This document shows, in pieces, positions 2,847-46,134 of a DNA stretch of 64,000 nucleotides. This DNA comes from Patescibacteria group bacterium (GTDB lineage: Bacteria; Patescibacteriota; Patescibacteriia; UBA10025; JAHIVO01). Position 1 is the stretch's first letter, and each line of letters begins with the position of its first letter. The notes below the pieces were generated by a model, which worked only from the letters and a program-made list of their open reading frames with translations, was not told the DNA's origin and ran no database searches. Made by a program: the position numbers and the translations under genes. The DNA lies in NCBI GenBank assembly GCA_041650915.1, contig JBAZKE010000001.1:379284-443283 (forward strand). Reading direction: 5' to 3'.

Positions 2847-5800
2847 TTACGTGAGGGTGATGCTGTCGGTGCCGATGATTGACCGTATCGTATCAAAGCT
2901 TTCTTCCCGAATCAAGTAGTTGGTCGTGATAACCTTGATTTTTGATGAAGATCGCACCCTCAGGTGGACGCGGTATTCTCCCGGATGCTGCGAAAAGGTT
3001 ATTTTTAACCGGTTGAAGGTTTCCTTGTCCGTCCGGGCCGGAATGGCGATGTAAACATTGCCGGTCGCCTGCGTTGTATGCCGGGGTGCGGAGTCGCCCA
3101 TGGCGTCGAGGTTGAGCTGCTGCACTTCGCTGCAGAGGAGCTTGAGGCTGCCTTCCTTGTCTGAGACGCGCCCCTTGATCAGTACCACATGCTCTTCTTG
3201 CCACGGCGTTGGATTCGCCTGGAGGGTCGTCGGGAAGACGAGCACTTCGATGCGGCCCGACATGTCTTCGACCTTCACAAAGAGCATCGGGTCGTTGTTT
3301 CTCGTCAGTACCTTCTGGATGTTGCTGATGATGCCGCCGATCGTAATTTCTTTTCGGTGCGGTGCAGCAGCGGACAGGTCGCCAATCGGCGTGGCAAGAT
3401 TGCGCAGGCGCTCGCGGTATTCCTCAAGCGGGTGCTCAGAAATGTAGAGGCCGAGGAGCTGTTTCTCCCATGACAGCTTTTGCTGCTTGGTTGCGGGTGC
3501 GGCGCTCTTGAGCCGGAGCTGCGGCGCGTGTTGCGTCGGCAGCACGCCGAAGAGGTTTGTCTGCCCGTTGAGAGTTTCACGCTCAGCCGATTTCATGTAC
3601 GTGAGAATCGCATCAATGCTGCCAAGGAGCTCGTTGCGCTCGCCGAACTGGTCGAGTGCGCCCGCCTTCATGAGGCTCTCGAGTGTTTTCTTATTAAGGT
3701 CTTTTGTCTGGACGCGACGGAGAAGATCTTCAAGGTTTTTGAACGGCCCATTTTCCTTGCGTTCAGCGATGATGTTCCGGACGACATTGACACCGACGTT
3801 TTTTACCGCGAGCAGGCCGAACCTGATTTTTTTCATCGGATTTTTTTTCTCCGGATTGAAAACGGCGGTGAATGTCGAGAAACTTTCGTTGATGTCCGGC
3901 GGAAGCACCTGGATGTGCATTTGTTCACATTCCTCGACTTCAATAGCAATCCTGTCGATATTGCCGTAATCGGAAGTCAGCAACGACGCCATGAATTCGT
4001 CGGGGTAGTTCGCCTTGAGGTACGCCGTCTGGTATGCGATGAGCGCGTAGCACGCAGCGTGCGCCCGGTTGAATCCGTACCGCGCGAACGGTTCGATAAA
4101 TTGCCAGATTTTTTGTGCGGTTGAACGGGGTATTTTATTTTTTACCATTCCCTCGATCATTTTATCGCGCTGCTGGATGAGCAGCTTGCGGATTTTTTTT
4201 CCGACTGCTTTCCTGAGTACGTCCGCTTCGGCGAGCGAGAATCCGGCGAGGTCACGCGCGATCTGCATAACTTGCTCCTGGTATACTGCAATGCCGTACG
4301 TCCGTTCGAGGATCGGCTTGAGCCTCGGATTCAGGTACGTCGCCAGCTTGAGGCCGTGCTTTCCGGCAATGAAGTCGGGGATGAGCTCCATGGGGCCGGG
4401 GCGGTATAGAGCAACCATCGCAATGATGTCTTCGAGCTCGGTTGGCTTGAGCTGTTTGAGGTAGCGTTTCATGCCTGATGATTCGAGCTGGAATACGCCG
4501 GTTGTCTTGCCCTGTTGGAGGAGCGTGAACGTTTTTTTGTCATCGAGCGGTATGGTATCGATGTTGATCTCGATGTTTCGTGCCTTTCTGATAATATTGA
4601 TTGTATTCTCGATGATCGTCAGGTTCTTCAACCCGAGGAAATCCATTTTGAGCAAGCCTAGATCTTCGATAGCGTGGAGATCGTACTGCGTGACGATGGT
4701 TTCGTCTTCGCTCTGTGCGGCATATTGGTAGGGGAGGTAGCGGTCGAGCGGTTCTTTAGTGATTACGACGCCGCATGCGTGCGTCGACGCGTGGCGGGCG
4801 ACTCCCTCGAGCTTTACGGCGGCATTGAGCAGTTTTTTCCCGTCAGGGTCGCTGTCATAGAGCGCCTTCAGCTCCGGAACCGCCTTGAGCGCGTCGGCGA
4901 TTGAAGAGAACATCGGGATGAGCTTGGCAACTTTGTCGCAGTACGCGTAAGCGAGGTCGAGCACGCGACCGGCATCCCGGACTGCCGCACGCGCTGCCAT
5001 GGTGCCGAAGGTGATGATCTGGGCTACGTGGTCTTTACCGTACTTATGCTCGACGTAGCGTATGACTTCATCCCGCCTCGTGTCCGCAAAATCGAGGTCG
5101 ATGTCAGGCATCGAAATCCGCTCGGGGTTGAGGAACCGCTCGAAGAGGAGGTCGTACTTGAGCGGATCGACATTGGTGATATTGAGGAGGTATGAGACGA
5201 TGCTCCCGGCAGCGGATCCGCGGCCGGGTCCGACGACGATGCCGTTCTGCTTCGCCCAGTTGACGAAATCCTGGACAATCAGAAAATAGGACGCGAATCC
5301 CGTCTTTTCAATGACGCCGAGTTCGTACTCGAGCCGTTTCTCGATAACGGCATCCCGCTCTCGCCCGGGGAACCGTTTTGGAATTCCGCCCGTGCACAGT
5401 TCTCTGAGGTAGGCATCGGGTAGCTTGCCGTTCGGCACCTCGAAGTGCGGCAGCTGGATCGTGCCAAGCTCGATGGTAACCGTACACGCTTGCGCAATTT
5501 TTATCGTATTTGCAATCGCTTCGGGGTGGTCAGGGAAAGCTTTTGCCATTTCTTCGGGAGTCTTGAAAGAGAAGTCCTCTCCGAGGTATGTCATCCGATC
5601 CCGGTCCCGCTGCTTCCGCTTCGTTTGCAGGCAGATCAGGATATCGTGTATTTCGTCATCGTCGCTATTCAGGTAGTGCACGTCATTGGTTGCGACGACC
5701 GGCAGGTCGAACTTTTTTCCGAGCGCAAATATCGTTTCGTTCACCTCATTCTGGTGGGGGATGCTCGGGTGGTCCTGCACTTCAAGGTAGAAGTTTCCGG

Positions 5801-36774: not shown

Positions 36775-36811
36775 GCTTGTTTTGCCGCTGGCAGGGGAGT
36801 AAAATGGGGGT
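36775..36811 (+). promoter_or_regulatory. conserved promoter module, copy a (TTGTTT-17-TAAAAT; leaderless-type spacing to ATG)
   Basis: CTTGTTTTGCCGCTGGCAGGGGAGTAAAATGGGGGT lies immediately before the ATG of the phosphoesterase gene. Confidence 0.6.
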
Positions 36812-37372
36812 ATGAAATTATTCGTGATAGCAGACCGACCGCCCCGCAGGCCCATTCGGGCCATTCTCTCGGAAAACCAGGTCGACGCGATCTGCACGCT
36901 TGGTGACCTGACGCTCCAGGACATCCGCCAGCTCGAGGATGTTGCCGGCATTCCAAAAGTCGGCGTGTACGGCAACCATGACAGTGGCACGTACATGAGC
37001 AGCCTCGGCATTGAGAATCTCCACCTCGCCACGGCCACGGTGAAGGGGATCGTCTTCGGCGGATTCCAGGGATCGGTGCGCTACAAGCCGGGGGAACATA
37101 TCATGTATACCCAGGAACAGGCAATGGAGCTGCTTGTCGGTTTCCCGCATGTCGATGTCATGCTTACGCACGCTCCGCCGTACGGCATCCACGATGAGCC
37201 GGACGATCCTGTCCACCAGGGATTCAGGGCGCTGAATGATTACATTGCCGTACAGCACCCCCGCTATCTCCTGCACGGGCATACCTATGCCCCTGAGCAT
37301 GACCGCACCGCCACGGTGGGCAGTACGAAGGTAATCTTTGTGTATCAAGATGCAATCGTGGATATCGTGTAA
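36812..37372 (+). CDS. metallophosphoesterase (calcineurin-like, YfcE/MJ0936-type)
   Basis: GDL, GNHD and GHTY/HAPP metal-ligand motifs. Confidence 0.75.
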   Translation: MKLFVIADRPPRRPIRAILSENQVDAICTLGDLTLQDIRQLEDVAGIPKVGVYGNHDSGTYMSSLGIENLHLATATVKGIVFGGFQGSVRYKPGEHIMYTQEQAMELLVGFPHVDVMLTHAPPYGIHDEPDDPVHQGFRALNDYIAVQHPRYLLHGHTYAPEHDRTATVGSTKVIFVYQDAIVDIV

Positions 37373-37430: not shown

Positions 37431-37467
37431 GTTGTTTTGTCGTTGGTGGGGGAGTAGAATGGGGGTA
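37431..37467 (+). promoter_or_regulatory. conserved promoter module, copy b (TTGTTT-17-TAGAAT)
   Basis: GTTGTTTTGTCGTTGGTGGGGGAGTAGAATGGGGGTA, 29 nt upstream of the ATG at 37496. Confidence 0.6.
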
Positions 37468-39439: not shown

Positions 39440-39476
39440 GTTGTTTTGTCGTTCGTGAGGGAGTAAAATGGGGATC
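39440..39476 (+). promoter_or_regulatory. conserved promoter module, copy c (orphan; points antisense into the minus-strand gene 39561..39803)
   Basis: GTTGTTTTGTCGTTCGTGAGGGAGTAAAATGGGGAT. No plus-strand gene follows. Confidence 0.45.
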
Positions 39477-39932: not shown

Positions 39933-40011
39933 CTTGTTTTGCTGTTCGTGGGGGAGAAGGCGACTGGCGGGAAGTGGTGGAGTTGACAATCTGGGCGAAC
40001 GGGTGTACGAT
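39933..40011 (+). promoter_or_regulatory. promoter module copy d (diverged), then a consensus TTGACA-17-TACGAT promoter
   Basis: CTTGTTTTGCTGTTCGTGGGGGAG..., then TTGACAATCTGGGCGAACGGGTGTACGAT upstream of the GTG at 40049. Confidence 0.5.
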
Positions 40012-40435: not shown

Positions 40436-40544
40436 TATCAGTACCCAACACAATGAAAGGGTGGTTTGCATGACGCAGATCACCCTTGATTTTTTTGTGC
40501 TCCCGCACCATTGAAAATGGTGTGAGAGGTTGATTTATTAGCAA

Positions 40545-40565
40545 AAAAGGAGGAGAATGGGGGTA
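40545..40565 (+). promoter_or_regulatory. conserved promoter module, truncated copy e at the edge of the AT-rich island
   Basis: AAAAAAGGAGGAGAATGGGGGTA keeps only the 3' half (the -10 and G-run) of the module. Confidence 0.4.
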
Positions 40566-40592
40566 TGTATTTGGTTTACACCATGATTATTA

Positions 40593-41468
40593 ATGACTAT
40601 GACTATGACAGATTACAGTGAGTTTCAAAAAAGATTCAAACTATTAGCGAGTAAAAATAAACATCTCGTAATTAACACCTTATCCAATATATTTACGATG
40701 AGGTTAATTGGTAATAAAACTCACGGTGATTTAGCAGAGATAGGCATGGTTGAATTTATTAACCAGTTCATGTATGACTTTAAAAGTATTCATGTTGGGA
40801 AAGATTTATTCCGGGCAAAAGAACATGAAGAGGATATAGTTGTTATTAATGAAATTACCAAAACTAAATTTCCCGTAAGTTTAAAGGCATATGGAGATGG
40901 GCCGCTACAACTTTCAACTGATTGTGACCAAAAAATGTTTCCATTTCTTGAGAAACAAGGTAAAAATATTGTAAATTCTAACAAAATAGAAGAGGTGTTT
41001 AAATCAAAAGAATTCGCAGCATTTGATGCAATAAATGTTATGCCACTTATTTATGATGAGAAAAAACAGAGATGTAATATTATGATTTTCGATCATAATA
41101 AAGCTATAAATGAAACTAGAAGGATTGTTTTCATTAATTTCAAAGAAAAATTTGATTTTGAAACCAAAAAAGTAATTCCAGGGAATTCTCGATCACACCC
41201 AATTTTTATGTTTCTTGATACTGGAGGAAATTATATATGTGAGGTTAGATATGGAGGCGCTTCAGCAAATGCACTTCAACGTGGTTTTTGGACTCATACA
41301 AAAAATGCACTTTCATTTTTTGATTCACTCACAAACGGCTGGATTGACTATTCTCATAATCAGACACTAGTAAAGTTGTTTAGCCTCGCACTTAATAGTT
41401 CTGAGCAGGGTCATAAATTAGCTAATGAAATTCTTCAGAAAGACATCGACAGATTAAAGACTTTATGA
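40593..41468 (+). CDS. putative type II restriction endonuclease (DpnII/MboI-family-like)
   Basis: 291 aa, AT-rich. Its stop overlaps the MTase start (ATGA). The block EVRYGGASANALQ resembles the DpnII-family EVNFYSGSGSKLN block; similarity judged by eye only. Confidence 0.4.
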   Translation: MTMTMTDYSEFQKRFKLLASKNKHLVINTLSNIFTMRLIGNKTHGDLAEIGMVEFINQFMYDFKSIHVGKDLFRAKEHEEDIVVINEITKTKFPVSLKAYGDGPLQLSTDCDQKMFPFLEKQGKNIVNSNKIEEVFKSKEFAAFDAINVMPLIYDEKKQRCNIMIFDHNKAINETRRIVFINFKEKFDFETKKVIPGNSRSHPIFMFLDTGGNYICEVRYGGASANALQRGFWTHTKNALSFFDSLTNGWIDYSHNQTLVKLFSLALNSSEQGHKLANEILQKDIDRLKTL

Positions 41469-42577
41469 CTGACCAGCAATTGAACATTTTTGGTAATTCC
41501 ACCATAACCACACCAAAAACTGAAGGTATTAAGTATGCTGGGTCAAAGTTAAAAATCTTGCCATATATAATTGAATTAGTAAGCGATTTAAAGGGTGTAA
41601 AAAAAATCTTAGATGGCTTTACTGGCACAACTCGTGTTGCACAAGCTATGGCACAACTTGGATATGACGTAACCGCCAGTGATATATCAATATGGTCGGA
41701 AGTATTTGCTAATTGTTATTTAAAGTCGAAGAAACCCGATAAATTTTATCAGGATATTCTAGACCATTTAAACAAGCTAAAGGGTTGTGATGGTTGGTAT
41801 ACTAGACATTATGGCGCCAAACCAAAAGAGAATAAAAAGCCATTTCAGGAAAAAAATACCCGTAAATTAGATGCGATCAGAGATGAAATTGAGAAGATTA
41901 ATTTACAATGGGTTGATAAATGTGTTATTTTGACCTCATTAATTAATGCATTAGATTCGGTTGATAGCACACTGGGTCATTATGTTTCATATCTCTCAAA
42001 TTGGTCTAAACGTTCGTATAATGATTTATATTTAAAATTACCAAAAAGAATTCAAAGTCCTGGCAAACATAAAGTGATTAAAGGAGATATTTTTGAAACA
42101 ATTAATAATAATGAATTTGATTTAGTGTATTTTGATCCACCGTATGGCTCAAACAATGAAAAAATGCCACCCAGCAGAGTCCGTTATGCCTCTTATTATC
42201 ATATTTGGACGACGGTTATCAAACATGATAAACCGGTAGTTTTTGGTAAGGTAAATCGAAGAGAAGATAGTAGGGACTTGGTAGCTGGTTCTGTATTTGA
42301 GGATTTTAGGAAAGATAATAATGGTTCATTTATTGCAATGGAAGCATTAAGAAGATTAGTCAAAGAAACAAAAGCACGATATATATTATTGTCATACAGT
42401 TCTGGCGGAAGAGCAACAAAAAAGGAACTTAATGAGATAATTGATGAATCGGGTAAACTATTAAAAGCAGTTGAAATTAATTATAAAAAGAACGTAATGG
42501 CTAATATGCGATGGACACATGAATGGATAAACAGTGATGGAAAGCATTCGGAATACCTTTTTTTAATGAAAAAATGA
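41465..42577 (+). CDS. D12-class (Dam-like) N6-adenine DNA methyltransferase
   Basis: N-terminal IKYAGSKLKILPYII (KWAGGK-type motif I) and catalytic VYFDPPYG (DPPY). Confidence 0.8.
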   Translation: MTDQQLNIFGNSTITTPKTEGIKYAGSKLKILPYIIELVSDLKGVKKILDGFTGTTRVAQAMAQLGYDVTASDISIWSEVFANCYLKSKKPDKFYQDILDHLNKLKGCDGWYTRHYGAKPKENKKPFQEKNTRKLDAIRDEIEKINLQWVDKCVILTSLINALDSVDSTLGHYVSYLSNWSKRSYNDLYLKLPKRIQSPGKHKVIKGDIFETINNNEFDLVYFDPPYGSNNEKMPPSRVRYASYYHIWTTVIKHDKPVVFGKVNRREDSRDLVAGSVFEDFRKDNNGSFIAMEALRRLVKETKARYILLSYSSGGRATKKELNEIIDESGKLLKAVEINYKKNVMANMRWTHEWINSDGKHSEYLFLMKK

Positions 42578-42589
42578 TAGGACAATGTT

Positions 42590-42745
42590 ATGGCAATAGA
42601 AAAGGTTAGTTTTATCGCGACAAAGTATAAAAACAAACCGACAATGGTACGTTTTTATACTAAAAAAGGTGATGTTGTAAGATTTTCAGCTCAAAAAAAA
42701 GCACCCGTAAAGCAGGTTGTTGAATTTAAAGCTAAGTCAAAATAA
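42590..42745 (+). CDS. small basic protein (51 aa)
   Basis: MAIEKVSFIATKYKNKPTMVRFYTKKGDVVRFSAQKKAPVKQVVEFKAKSK. Below the ORF-track length cut-off; lies between the MTase and rusA. Confidence 0.35.
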   Translation: MAIEKVSFIATKYKNKPTMVRFYTKKGDVVRFSAQKKAPVKQVVEFKAKSK

Positions 42746-42748
42746 ATT

Positions 42749-43198
42749 GTGAGCACTACATATTTTGATTACAGTTTTGGGTTGTCAGAAATTATTCCAT
42801 CAGGCAATCGTCAAAAAAGTGATAGTGCTTGTGCGTTTTATAAAGTTGTTGGTCAAGCGTTAAAAGATATTGATAAACAAGGAATCTTCCCAACAAAAAA
42901 GTTAGTTTTTATTTTTATTTTACAGTTTTTTTCGAATCAAGAAGAATATCAAAAACGAGATATTGATAATATGTGCAAAACCATGCTGGCGGCATTAAAA
43001 AATAAGATATATGAGGACGACGTACAAGTAAAAACGTTATTAATCAGTAAACAAATAAATAGTAAGATTCCGGTAAACTTCGTTTACATCGGAATAAAGT
43101 TATCCGATTACAAGGATAATACCGGAATGGTGAAAGTAAATATTAACAATGCCATATCATTGTTTCAGGGCTCTGTTAAACAAGCAGTTGAAAAGTAA
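42749..43198 (+). CDS. rusA: RusA-family Holliday junction resolvase (phage-type)
   Basis: QKRDIDNMCKTMLAALKNKIYEDDVQV matches the RusA catalytic block [28 protein letters not shown]. Confidence 0.7.
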   Translation: MSTTYFDYSFGLSEIIPSGNRQKSDSACAFYKVVGQALKDIDKQGIFPTKKLVFIFILQFFSNQEEYQKRDIDNMCKTMLAALKNKIYEDDVQVKTLLISKQINSKIPVNFVYIGIKLSDYKDNTGMVKVNINNAISLFQGSVKQAVEK

Positions 43199-43237
43199 TA
43201 TAATACGGTAGATACTATATGAGTGCTAATCCTAGCA

Positions 43238-43267
43238 CTTGTTTTGTTATTGGTGGGGGAGTAGGAT
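43238..43267 (+). promoter_or_regulatory. conserved promoter module, copy f (TTGTTT-17-TAGGAT)
   Basis: CTTGTTTTGTTATTGGTGGGGGAGTAGGATGG, 10 nt before the ATG at 43277. Confidence 0.55.
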
Positions 43268-43276
43268 GGAGAATAT

Positions 43277-44365
43277 ATGGTAAGCATTTTCGAACAAATT
43301 TCAATTTTATTACAAGGACAGCCTTGGATGGTTTTTGGTGGTTATAATTTAAAACTCCAGGGGATTGATAATAGCGCAAATGATATTGATATTGTTACGA
43401 CTGATAAGGGGATTGGGATAATAGCCAAAACGAGAAAAGAAAAAGTTAATCGAGGAAATAATTGGAAAGGATGTAAATTTGTCGTAAATGGACTGCAAAT
43501 TGACGTAATCACTGAGGAGGGTTTTACTCAACAATTTTTTCAAAAATACTTACAAGAAAACAGAATAAACATTATATATTATGATGGCGTACCAGTATTT
43601 TGTTTAAAATTATCTGAGCAACGAAAAGGATACGAAGCAATTTTAGCCGCTCATAAGGGGAGCAATGACCCAACTCTTAAGATAGAATTATTGAAAAAAT
43701 ATGAGGAAAGTAATAAATTCACCCCCGAGCAATGGTATGTTGTGTGGAAAAGAATTTTCGAAGAAAATTTATTAGCCGACTTATATAAACTAGTCAGTAA
43801 TCAACCGCAGCAAAGTGGAGGTTTGAATTTCGTTATTGTACTGATGTGCCTCGTAACTATGGATTTAGTGGGGAAGCTTATTTGCGGATCAAATAACAAA
43901 GACGCAATAAGGGCATTTATTAAATCGGAGTTTTTTCAAATACCTAAAGCTTACAATGGAGACGACTTTGCGGATATAATTAATACTGAATTAAGAAATA
44001 ACCTGGCTCATGCCTTTTTCCCTGAAAGGAACATTGCAATTGGCAGAAATACACCTTTTCAACATTTTAATATTATACCAGTAGTCGGTTCTGAAAGAAA
44101 ATTATTTTGGATTGATGCTGATGAACTGCACCGGGATCTTTTGCAATCGTTAGATCAATATAAAGCGGCTTTAATTGAAGATAAAAAACAGGACGGCGAT
44201 AGACTCAGGTCATTATTTGTTAAATATGTTAATGAAAATATGTTAACTGAGTCGATAAATCTTAAAGGGTTTATGGAAAAGAATTATAAGCTCGATGTAC
44301 ATAATTATCCAATTAGTTCAGATAAGGTTACTCATACTACAACGTTACCGCCTGAAACAAAATAA
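43277..44365 (+). CDS. fused minimal nucleotidyltransferase (MNT) - HEPN-like protein
   Basis: N-terminal WMVFGGYNLKLQGIDNSANDIDIV (hGG-x13-DhD NTase motif, Lnu-like). C-terminal ELRNNLAHAFF fits the HEPN R-x4-H motif. Confidence 0.5.
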   Translation: MVSIFEQISILLQGQPWMVFGGYNLKLQGIDNSANDIDIVTTDKGIGIIAKTRKEKVNRGNNWKGCKFVVNGLQIDVITEEGFTQQFFQKYLQENRINIIYYDGVPVFCLKLSEQRKGYEAILAAHKGSNDPTLKIELLKKYEESNKFTPEQWYVVWKRIFEENLLADLYKLVSNQPQQSGGLNFVIVLMCLVTMDLVGKLICGSNNKDAIRAFIKSEFFQIPKAYNGDDFADIINTELRNNLAHAFFPERNIAIGRNTPFQHFNIIPVVGSERKLFWIDADELHRDLLQSLDQYKAALIEDKKQDGDRLRSLFVKYVNENMLTESINLKGFMEKNYKLDVHNYPISSDKVTHTTTLPPETK

Positions 44366-44456
44366 TTTCCATTGTTTATATCGGCAGATCCGCCCCCCCG
44401 CTGGCGGTTTTTTGTTTGGGATGATCGTGATACAATAATAATACATAAAAAATTAT

Positions 44457-44696
44457 ATGAAAAAAGCACTATATATTTCCTTTGCTATCGTTGTACTGCT
44501 CGGTGCCGGGATATTCATTTACTTCCAATACTGGGGCACTGATGGCATCCCTACGAATTCAAACACCAACACGCCTGCTAATACGAATGCGGTCGCCTGC
44601 ACCATGGAAGCTAAACTTTGCCCGGACGGATCGGCAGTGGGACGCACTGGCCCGAATTGCGAATTCGCGGCCTGCCCGGAAGTGGAGCAGGAGTAG
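44457..44696 (+). CDS. small secreted/membrane-anchored protein with NTNTPANTN linker
   Basis: 79 aa with N-terminal TM and Cys pairs in the C-terminal part. Confidence 0.45.
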   Translation: MKKALYISFAIVVLLGAGIFIYFQYWGTDGIPTNSNTNTPANTNAVACTMEAKLCPDGSAVGRTGPNCEFAACPEVEQE

Positions 44697-44900
44697 GTTG
44701 GAAGGAAGGAGGGTGTAAGTTTTAGGAAGAAAGTAAGGAAGTATGAGATAGGAAGAAGGGTGGATGAAGGGAAGTAGGGCGAATGATGAAGGCATAGTAG
44801 TAGGAAGTAAGTTTTTAGGTTGTACGAAGAAAGTAAAGAAGAAGGAAATTAGAAGAAGGATACGCATTGACGCGAAAAGGAAATTCTGATAACATTGAAG
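44697..44900 (+). repeat. strand-asymmetric purine-rich (GA) low-complexity tract with internal imperfect repeat
   Basis: GGAAGGAAGGAGGG...AGGAAGAAAGTAAGGAAG... The units (GTAAGTTTT(T)AGG...GAAGAAAGTAARGAAG) occur twice. Confidence 0.6.
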
Positions 44901-44996: not shown

Positions 44997-45350
44997 ATGA
45001 TTAAAGCGTATTATTTCGTGCGACAAAACGGAAGGGCGCCGGTTGAGGAGTATGTTCGTTCAATCAACTCAAAACGGGAAATTGCCTATATCCAGGCAGC
45101 GATTGATAAGTTAATCAAGTATGAAGGAAGGTTACCGCTGCCATACGCAAAGAAAATCCGCGATAAAGTATGGGAGTTACGTTCACCATTAGGCAATCGG
45201 GTTTTTTATTTCATTGATACAGGCCAGGAGATTATTCTCCTCGATGGGCACACAAAAAAGCGTGACCGAATAGAACCTCGAATCCTGAATCGCGTTTTGA
45301 ACCACTATAGGGAGTACCAAGCTACCCGTAACCGTAAACCGTACCAATAA
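44997..45350 (+). CDS. type II toxin, RelE/ParE superfamily (Gp49/HigB-like)
   Basis: 117 aa. KVWELRSPLGNRVFYFIDTGQEIILLDGHTKK is the Gp49-like (DUF891) signature. Confidence 0.65.
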   Translation: MIKAYYFVRQNGRAPVEEYVRSINSKREIAYIQAAIDKLIKYEGRLPLPYAKKIRDKVWELRSPLGNRVFYFIDTGQEIILLDGHTKKRDRIEPRILNRVLNHYREYQATRNRKPYQ

Positions 45351-45360
45351 CAAATCATAT

Positions 45361-45627
45361 ATGAATAAGAATAATATTTTTTATAAATTTCAAAAGGACA
45401 AAGAATACCAACGCTACTACAAAGAAGCAAGCGATATGCTTGAAATTGCCATTCAGATCGCTGAAGCGAGGAAGAAACAAAAGATGACCCAGGTCCAGTT
45501 AGCAAAACATATCGGTATGCCCCAGAGCCAGATTGCCAGGATTGAGAGCGGTAATAGCAATACAACTGTCAGTACACTGTATAAAGTCTTAAACGCGCTT
45601 AATTTGCGTTTGAAATTGGCGAACTAA
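45361..45627 (+). CDS. XRE-family HTH antitoxin (HigA-like)
   Basis: MTQVQLAKHIGMPQSQIARIESGNSN is an XRE HTH. Immediately downstream of the toxin. Confidence 0.65.
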   Translation: MNKNNIFYKFQKDKEYQRYYKEASDMLEIAIQIAEARKKQKMTQVQLAKHIGMPQSQIARIESGNSNTTVSTLYKVLNALNLRLKLAN

Positions 45628-45734
45628 TTATTTTTTCTTTTACATTTCGCCTTAACGGGCGGTTTTTTATTTGAGATGAATATGGAAGGACGGGGCGTTT
45701 GTTTATTATGGAGAAATAATATACAATACCAAAC

Positions 45735-46034: not shown

Positions 46035-46134
46035 AGTACCCTTGAGATTTTGCCGAGGTTGTTTTTTTATTGGAGAAGATTCGGTTAGAAGCGGTTTTTT
46101 ATTTAAAGTAATCGTGATACAATTGTGTTACTAT

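Follow-up and report, generated by a model that had tools for sequence, protein, structure and literature searches.

We describe a 3.9-kb AT-rich block of five genes in a 64-kb window of a Patescibacterium chromosome of 55% GC (contig JBAZKE010000001.1), and on balance, with no great confidence, we read this locus as foreign DNA assembled from three modules. These are a predicted restriction-modification (R-M) pair, ORF1 and ORF2; a RusA-like resolvase gene, ORF4, together with the gene of its small basic partner S51; and ORF5, a nucleotidyltransferase (NTase) fused to a HEPN domain, which would act as a self-restrained RNase. The window is the whole stretch of DNA that was analysed; coordinates are positions within it, and all genome-context searches at the locus were limited to it. 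The grouping itself, five AT-rich open reading frames (ORFs) on the + strand in the positions listed below, is confirmed as real, and lies far beyond chance.

The evidence for a mosaic comes from the behaviour of the modules in other genomes. Hidden Markov models (HMMs) of the NTase and HEPN modules found nothing in about 90 RusA loci, and HMMs of RusA and S51 found nothing near the relatives of ORF5. The modules thus occur apart elsewhere, which argues for a mosaic defence islet rather than for one system. Within the islet, ORF1 to ORF4 are spaced as a single operon, in which S51-RusA has been joined to the R-M pair. ORF5 would be controlled separately, as the 78-nucleotide (nt) spacer ahead of it holds its own promoter-like site, terminator-like hairpin and leader cassette.

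Patescibacteria have tiny genomes and an epibiont life, and little has been mapped of their means of defence and DNA repair. The locus shows that a genome of this kind has recently taken up defence genes in compact form. Its R-M pair is by itself ordinary; ORF5 is a rare fusion, and may be an anti-phage suicide switch.

Composition and gene layout of the AT-rich block

The five genes, and the parts into which ORF5 can be divided, are as follows.

40593-41468, +, ORF1, predicted Type II restriction endonuclease (REase), 291 amino acids (aa); PADLOC REase_II PDLC03568
41465-42577, +, ORF2, predicted D12-class (alpha-type) N6-adenine DNA methyltransferase, 370 aa; PF02086, PADLOC MTase_II PDLC03342
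42590-42745, +, S51 (ORF3), strongly basic protein, 51 aa; homologs lie upstream of RusA-like genes
42749-43198, +, ORF4, predicted RusA-family Holliday-junction endonuclease, 149 aa; Pfam PF05866
43277-44365, +, ORF5, NTase-HEPN fusion, 362 aa; HMMER module matches and predicted structure
43277-43720, +, ORF5 N-terminal domain (aa 1-148), TM1012-like minimal nucleotidyltransferase (MNT)
43739-44296, +, ORF5 C-terminal HEPN-fold domain (aa 155-340), undescribed family
44327-44362, +, disordered ORF5 tail with HTTTLPPE; predicted local distance difference test score (pLDDT) below 50 for residues 354-362

A preliminary description of this DNA, made from its letters, had reported a sharp shift to AT-rich composition at 40560-44400 and five genes within it. 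Both hold, and the genes lie in the ORF list of the window exactly where they had been placed. In 1-kb windows, GC is 0.33, 0.31 and 0.33 across 41-44 kb, versus about 0.52-0.61 elsewhere. The edges were mapped with 200-nt windows, every one of which has a GC of 0.29-0.37 within 40,500-44,440, against a background of about 0.54; at the left edge, near 40,500, GC drops from 0.50 to 0.33, and at the right edge, near 44,440, it climbs again past about 44,450. The same description had proposed that codon usage be compared with the core, and this comparison clearly separates the two sets of genes: GC at third codon positions (GC3) is 0.23-0.29 in all five genes of the block and 0.54-0.77 in the host genes on either side. 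This uniformly low GC3 points to a single recent import, and the donor was probably a low-GC relative. The gaps between successive genes from ORF1 to ORF4 are -4, 12 and 3 nt. Most of the identities that had been proposed also stand, on the evidence given below: an overlapping 291-aa/370-aa pair with a D12-class DPPY methylase, a basic protein of 51 aa, a RusA resolvase with an RDIDN...AAL...DD block, and a 362-aa NTase-HEPN-like fusion.

The NTase-HEPN fusion ORF5

ORF5 joins a TM1012-like NTase to a HEPN domain of an undescribed family. The protein is unrecognised by the family libraries of Pfam, PADLOC, NCBIfam and PHROGs, and a word-indexed search returned a single full-length homolog (62% identity), at the metagenomic locus L001. 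Its two halves are more widespread: in an exhaustive HMMER search, stand-alone proteins of about 140-155 aa aligned with residues 4-148, and a second set of stand-alone proteins, of about 200-240 aa, aligned with residues 155-340 (a profile search with a six-sequence HEPN alignment gave one genome locus). The profile of the N-terminal module matches the putative nucleotidyltransferase TM1012 over its full length (E 1e-22), and there are structural matches to MenT too. The N-terminal domain carries GG(21-22)-x13-D36-x-D38, with D36, D38 and Y119 invariant; this is the G[GS]-x(n)-DxD pattern of Pol-beta-fold NTases, and it comes with no MntA-type Pfam match. The C-terminal domain has a predicted HEPN fold with an R-x4-6-H motif, R240-NNLA-H245 (Rx4H, encoded at 43994-44011), whose R and H are invariant in 19 of 19 C-module proteins. 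This module has no significant Pfam or PDB sequence match, the best being pEK499_p136 at E 0.053 in 2 of the 19 members. The AlphaFold model of ORF5 was built from a 31-sequence alignment (mean pLDDT 89.4, predicted template modelling score 0.73); a two-sequence model was unusable (pLDDT 38).

TM1012 itself (PDB 2EWR/2FCL/4HX0, from Thermotoga maritima) is about 160 aa long and stands alone, whereas in ORF5 the same type of domain is fused to HEPN. We know of no function for this structural-genomics orphan. ORF5 would be the first described pairing of a TM1012-type nucleotidyltransferase with a HEPN RNase domain, and so provides a functional lead for TM1012-like proteins in general.

The disordered tail of ORF5 contains HTTTLPPE, which is identical in the sole other full-length fusion, that of L001. 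A short Thr-rich motif, TT[TYI], often followed by L/D-P-P, is found in the disordered C-terminal tails of 11 of the 19 members of the HEPN-C family, with or without an NTase; besides ORF5, it recurs at the C-termini of the proteins P0011, P0023, P0024, P0030, P0036, P0042, P0045, P0046 and P0047. The tail is a candidate regulatory site.

Fused MNT-HEPN proteins were characterised in 2026, with the prophage-borne FhepTA of Shewanella (SO_1440), which is non-toxic when intact and toxic as an isolated HEPN domain, and whose control lies in tri-AMPylation of the RxxxxHxY Tyr and in a block on HEPN dimerisation imposed by the MNT (PMC13000451). Like FhepTA, ORF5 has NTase and HEPN fused in one chain, with both catalytic signatures. 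The differences are considerable: ORF5 is longer (362 versus 276 aa), its NTase motif is the TM1012-like GG-x13-DxD rather than the MntA-like GS-x10-DxD of FhepTA and HepT-MntA, its HEPN domain, unlike those of FhepTA and HepT, matches neither DUF86/HepT nor any other Pfam or NCBIfam HEPN model, and compared with FhepTA and HepT-MntA it has an elaboration of about 150 residues, helical and beta-strand, and the conserved TTT tail. HepT/MntA, the type VII toxin-antitoxin, is moreover encoded by two genes, whereas separate modules of the ORF5 type are not adjacent pairs in the two contexts examined. We reject a membership of ORF5 in type VII, given the absence of the acceptor Tyr and of family matches.

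We favour a reading of ORF5 as an RNase effector that restrains itself in the manner of FhepTA, probably with a different acceptor or with purely steric control. The HEPN domain, with its invariant Rx4H, would act as the RNase effector; the fused TM1012-like NTase would restrain it through covalent nucleotidylylation, through blocked HEPN dimerisation, or through both; and infection or nucleoside triphosphate stress would free it, with abortive infection or growth arrest as the outcome. The invariance of Rx4H in the C-module proteins, stand-alone ones without NTase among them, points to a HEPN domain that is catalytic in its own right. If correct, this reading of ORF5 would carry the concept of the fused MNT-HEPN toxin-antitoxin over to families that are unrelated and have no canonical Tyr acceptor.

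Two other divisions of labour between the domains have to be considered. ORF5 could be a nucleotidyltransferase of small molecules, for example antibiotics, in which the HEPN-like domain merely binds the substrate. HEPN domains fused to MNTs are usually without RNase residues and serve in substrate binding, as in KNTase (Anantharaman et al. 2013, PMC3710099), and 10 of 14 N-module relatives match PF10706 (Aminoglyc_resit) at E<=1, one of them above the Pfam cut-off. However, in contrast to the KNTase (ANT(4')) type (PMC3710099), ORF5 keeps the Rx4H that no C-module protein has lost, stand-alone ones included, and the contexts of the family are R-M or defence-like rather than resistance cassettes; we therefore think this explanation unlikely. 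Alternatively, the NTase domain could be the toxic effector, a tRNA nucleotidyltransferase like MenT or AbiEii, with HEPN as an RNA-binding or regulatory module. The invariant DxD is what such a toxin would show, but so is the HEPN catalytic pair conserved; moreover, stand-alone N-module proteins (about 140-155 aa) are common, TM1012 is to our knowledge not known as a toxin, and no AbiEi-like antitoxin gene is adjacent among the ORFs of the window. To this alternative, too, we give only a small chance. The reading of ORF5 as a self-restrained RNase also has precedent in its position, as several HEPN families are often found within R-M operons (Anantharaman et al. 2013, PMC3710099). Like the ApeA, EC042_2821 and pEK499_p136 families, ORF5 is a HEPN protein beside R-M, presumably a second layer of defence; unlike them it is fused to an NTase, and it has no significant membership in these families, the match to pEK499_p136 (E 0.053) being insignificant.

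The relatives of ORF5 have neighbours of defence type. At L001 (1-7426; JGI 3300037067 Ga0378408_0033951), an AT-rich cluster, the fusion homolog follows an ABC-ATPase-like protein (LmuB/mad3-like, with mad3/LmuB/PDC-S06 matches), a Cas4-like PD-(D/E)XK nuclease is encoded before the fusion, and a PDC-S11-like gene lies on the other strand. The contig ends in a terminase large-subunit homolog, confirmed by tblastn against phages, 2.5 kb from the fusion. Because of this proximity, the ORF5 family may travel on phage-associated elements. At L010 (2285-5715; Candidatus Paceibacter metagenome-assembled genome DYGE01000007.1), a stand-alone HEPN-C family protein (3983-4606) is encoded on the + strand within a row of genes for small proteins, and at least two of these proteins have Rx4-5H motifs of their own (RDQIVAH, RDSINH); on the opposite strand, a LexA-like/DNA-methyltransferase fusion adjoins the small Rx4-5H proteins. 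The row may be a multi-HEPN defence cluster.

The restriction-modification pair and S51-RusA

Judged by their sequences, ORF1 and ORF2 are an ordinary, classical Type IIP R-M pair. ORF1 matches the REBASE-derived Type II REase model PDLC03568 of PADLOC from end to end (residues 3-289, E 1.3e-116), and no Pfam family, DpnII included, at E<=0.1 besides a spurious ParE-like match. Sequence searches and tblastn found no relatives of ORF1 in the PDB, plasmids or phages. The preliminary description had called this enzyme DpnII/MboI-like, an assignment that the lack of a Pfam or PDB match leaves unsupported. ORF2 matches MTase_II PDLC03342 (E 3.5e-135) and PF02086 (E 3.9e-25), and its FDPPYG, read in translation, lies downstream of the S-adenosylmethionine motif, the order of the alpha class. 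It is annotated by NCBI as 'DNA adenine methylase', and is just 31% identical to annotated Dam-family plasmid genes. Neither the PDB nor tblastn against plasmids and phages gave a named relative of the pair from which specificity could be taken. The stop codon of ORF1 and the start codon of ORF2 overlap by 4 nt (ATGA). The REase would cleave unmethylated incoming DNA, and the methylase, a predicted alpha-class N6-adenine enzyme, would be translationally coupled to it through the ATGA. As in Type II R-M systems of the Dam/D12 class (e.g. DpnII, MboI, EcoRV), a D12 alpha-type N6-adenine methylase with DPPY adjoins the REase and is coupled to it; the difference is that the REase of the block comes from a family without a Pfam model, and is not DpnII-like.

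ORF4 scores 31.4 bits against PF05866, above the cut-off of 22.8, and the same family is found in 8 of 8 close homologs. Its RDIDN...AAL...DD block is read directly in translation; R70, D71, D73, N74, K77, D90 and D91 are invariant across nine ORF4 homologs, and the block aligns to residues 67-95 of E. coli RusA (1Q8R; D70, D72, K76, D90-D91), with the catalytic Asp residues intact. In these respects ORF4 resembles the RusA of the E. coli DLP12 prophage and the RusA proteins of phages. It departs from them in size, ORF4 and its relatives having 145-170 aa versus the 120 aa of E. coli RusA, and in its divergent N-terminal half. Unlike phage RusA resolvases, its subfamily occurs on contigs of cellular origin and is absent from phage collections: a metagenome scan gave 124 relatives of ORF4, which form a cellular subfamily common in groundwater metagenomes, and tblastn found no match to ORF4 in 50,697 phage genomes. 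Close relatives of ORF4 lie on contigs of 0.33-0.37 GC.

A further difference from E. coli and phage RusA is that this subfamily is always preceded by a conserved gene for a basic partner of 51-60 aa. S51, with 12 K, 2 R and 3 D/E in 51 residues, is the obligate upstream partner of the RusA-like gene and belongs to an undescribed family. In every neighbourhood first inspected, the RusA-like gene was preceded, at a distance of a few nt, by a homologous gene of about 51 aa, and an S51 homolog lies immediately upstream at 87 loci, representing 63 distinct RusA clusters, with gaps of -32 to +17 nt. F8, A10, F22, T24, G27 and V30 of S51 are conserved, in the pattern V.FIATK...P..V.FYTK.G..V.F. A profile search with S51 found nothing significant in Pfam or the PDB; a match to L24/KOW (E 0.022) came from 1 of 27 members only and was dismissed as noise. 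A literature search found no published description of the pairing. We infer that S51-RusA would cut Holliday junctions, with S51 as its DNA-binding or specificity partner, and the resolvase operon may help to mend breaks that arise from self-restriction. A RusA with a fixed basic partner offers a lead on junction resolution in small-genome bacteria, taxon names being at hand for the window and L010 only.

R-M genes of three unrelated types precede the pair in one and the same tight operon: the system of the window, Dcm, REase_II and Vsr at L002, and an Eco57I-like Type IIG enzyme at L012. At 8 of the 63 distinct loci, the pair has a methylase-like gene upstream of it on the same strand; among the 36 loci for which 4 kb or more of sequence is available, the number is 7. 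Common descent probably links several of the IIG cases, and we therefore rate the link between RusA and R-M as suggestive only. The neighbours of S51-RusA are very diverse: the 149 flanking proteins represent 119 Pfam families, and housekeeping genes are among them. We therefore reject S51-RusA as an obligate accessory of R-M. The pair is usually slightly AT-richer than its flanks (median GC difference -0.035, maximum -0.17), which fits frequent transfer.

Some individual loci of the pair deserve mention. At L002 (3352-7438), an operon-like + run encodes a MazE-like small protein, RadC, the Dcm methylase, the Type II REase, Vsr, S51 and RusA, that is, an R-M system plus three accessory genes of DNA-repair type. 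At L006 (6837-7456) and L007 (3841-4460), which represent one lineage, S51-RusA is encoded on the opposite strand, with nusG on one side and, on the other, a 182-aa ORF that lies upstream of rplK, and so breaks up the normally conserved secE-nusG-rplK cluster.

Assembly, origin and surroundings of the block

The observations that weigh against a mosaic with a self-restrained RNase, a restricting R-M pair and an attached resolvase concern each of its modules. In ORF5 (RNNLAHAF), the position H+2, which in the RxxxxHxY of FhepTA and HepT is the AMP-acceptor Tyr, is Phe; among the 19 family members it is Phe in 11 and Tyr in 3. Any covalent regulation of ORF5 must therefore use another site. The stand-alone HEPN-C genes of L010 and L011 have no NTase neighbour, from which it follows that the HEPN module does not generally need an NTase antidote. 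The host DNA shows no avoidance of palindromic sites, with an observed/expected ratio of 0.91 for GATC. Most S51-RusA loci have neighbours other than R-M, and a functional link between RusA and R-M thus stays unproven. Lastly, a comparison with PADLOC models, which the preliminary description had proposed, assigned the REase and the methylase to Type II models, and left S51, RusA and ORF5 without a match to any defence model of PADLOC-DB v2 at E<=0.1.

Could all five genes instead form one integrated novel defence system, coupling restriction, junction resolution and RNA cleavage? Their uniform composition, the tight spacing of ORF1-ORF4 and the recurrence of S51-RusA behind three different R-M types in the same operon would agree with this. 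We nevertheless consider it improbable: relatives of ORF5 are found in the absence of R-M and of RusA, RusA loci have no ORF5 modules, the genes around most copies of S51-RusA are unrelated and in part housekeeping, and ORF5 has a promoter-like site, hairpin and leader of its own. The preliminary description had also taken the block for a phage-derived island or prophage remnant, in which the genes would be leftovers of an integrated phage and RusA and the methylase would be replication or 'nin'-region genes. RusA and Dam-like methylases are indeed common in lambdoid phages. There is a weak PHROGs match to RusA (phrog_140, E 2.7e-7), the sole other full-length ORF5 homolog lies near a terminase homolog, and FhepTA is prophage-borne (PMC13000451). 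Against this, the DNA of the block has no match in the 50,697 phage records, nor do the proteins ORF1, ORF4 and ORF5; IMG/VR holds no relatives of ORF1 or ORF5; and viral contigs gave 12 matches, all of them fragments of the RusA catalytic core of 33-66 aa and none with an S51 gene, whereas the S51-RusA subfamily has its 124 metagenomic relatives among cellular contigs. The block contains no structural, integrase or repressor gene, and a search for attachment sites and integrase remnants, which had been suggested for the DNA beyond the window and was made within it, found none in or next to the block, with no nearby tRNA gene and no att-like junction repeats of at least 9 nt. A prophage origin is thus very improbable. 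Searches of plasmids with the DNA of the block found no match, and BFVD returned only generic single-domain NTase matches for ORF5. The term 'defence island', used alongside, is a fair label for the mosaic, given the R-M pair, the HEPN protein and a RelE/ParE-HTH toxin-antitoxin pair just downstream.

A bolder combination of these proposals, in which ORF5 founds a new single-chain, self-regulating RNase defence family and, at the same time, S51-RusA is an unrecognised two-component resolvase of ultra-small bacteria, has in our judgement a rather slim chance of being right as a whole. The NTase would then gate the new HEPN family by nucleotidylylation at a site that differs from the HepT Tyr and may be the HTTTLPPE tail, and R-M cassettes would take S51-RusA into their operons as a repair or mobility accessory, in the way that Vsr accompanies Dcm methylases.

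The control elements in and around the block are as follows.

40457-40497, +, terminator-like hairpin with a 13-bp stem and T-run, after a host 128-aa gene; left edge of the block
40546-40586 (copy 40546-40564), +, partial host leader cassette (GGAGGAGAATGGGGGTATG) with a strong Shine-Dalgarno; from sequence and cassette alignment, function predicted
43177-43283, +, intergenic control region before ORF5, with promoter-like site, hairpin, cassette and mini-ORF
44390-44436, +, intrinsic-terminator-like hairpin (44390-44407) with T-run, and 33-nt terminator/-10 junction repeat; right edge
36777-36799, 37432-37454, 39441-39463, 39934-39956 and 43239-43261, +, full cassette copies

The leader cassette, TTGTTTTG..GTT.GTGGGGGAG, then TA(R)(R)ATGGGGGT, is present in five copies versus 0.01 expected. 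Each copy has a strong Shine-Dalgarno and a tiny ORF whose end falls at or close to the start codon of the following gene, for example MGV-stop overlapping the ATG at 36812. At the left edge of the block, a 9-codon upstream ORF (MGVCIWFTP-stop, 40557-40586) ends 6 nt before the REase start. In the spacer region before ORF5, a promoter-like TAAACA-16-TATAAT (43177-43204) is followed by a terminator-like hairpin (43219-43242), the full cassette at 43239-43261 and a mini-ORF (MENIW-stop, 43266-43283) that overlaps the ORF5 start. From its sequence, the cassette looks like a host-type termination-reinitiation leader, placed ahead of two genes in otherwise foreign AT-rich DNA. A scan of 36-47 kb found no Rfam match for it, and it is absent from the locus of the ORF5 homolog, L001. 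The description of the island as bounded by copies of this cassette is correct for the partial copy at the left edge, and does not hold strictly for the full copies, of which one (39934) lies 600 nt to the left and another (43239) inside the block. The terminator/promoter junction motif that it placed at the boundary is present, as the terminator at 44390-44407 and the 33-nt repeat from 44404.

This 33-nt junction of a terminator tail and a -10-like element (GCGGTTTTTTGTTTGGGATGATCGTGATACAAT, 44404-44436) has an 82% copy at 46091-46123, and weaker copies at 45659 and 45695. The junction comes after one small gene and then the next, and has the look of a terminator-promoter joint that recurs in the host.

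Proteins of the window are on record under the locus tags WC505_019xx. The flanks of the block hold chromosomal genes, among them those for a TypA/BipA GTPase, a DEAD-box helicase, an M20 peptidase and a FecR-domain protein, and a tRNA cluster lies at 18.5-20 kb. The toxin-antitoxin pair just to the right of the block is of type II and of intermediate GC (0.38-0.44), and consists of a toxin of the Gp49/RelE-ParE family (44997-45350; PF05973, E 1e-10) and, behind it, an antitoxin-like protein with HTH_3 (45361-45627; E 1e-15). The region 44700-44900 is purine-rich and non-coding-looking, with a GC skew of up to 0.77, and includes a 44-nt direct repeat at 44716 and 44816 (80% identical) built of GGAAG/GAAGG-type units. 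Directly beside the block, 44457-44696 encodes a 79-aa protein of host-like GC, without a family match, which has an N-terminal hydrophobic segment and a Cys-rich C-terminus with four Cys.

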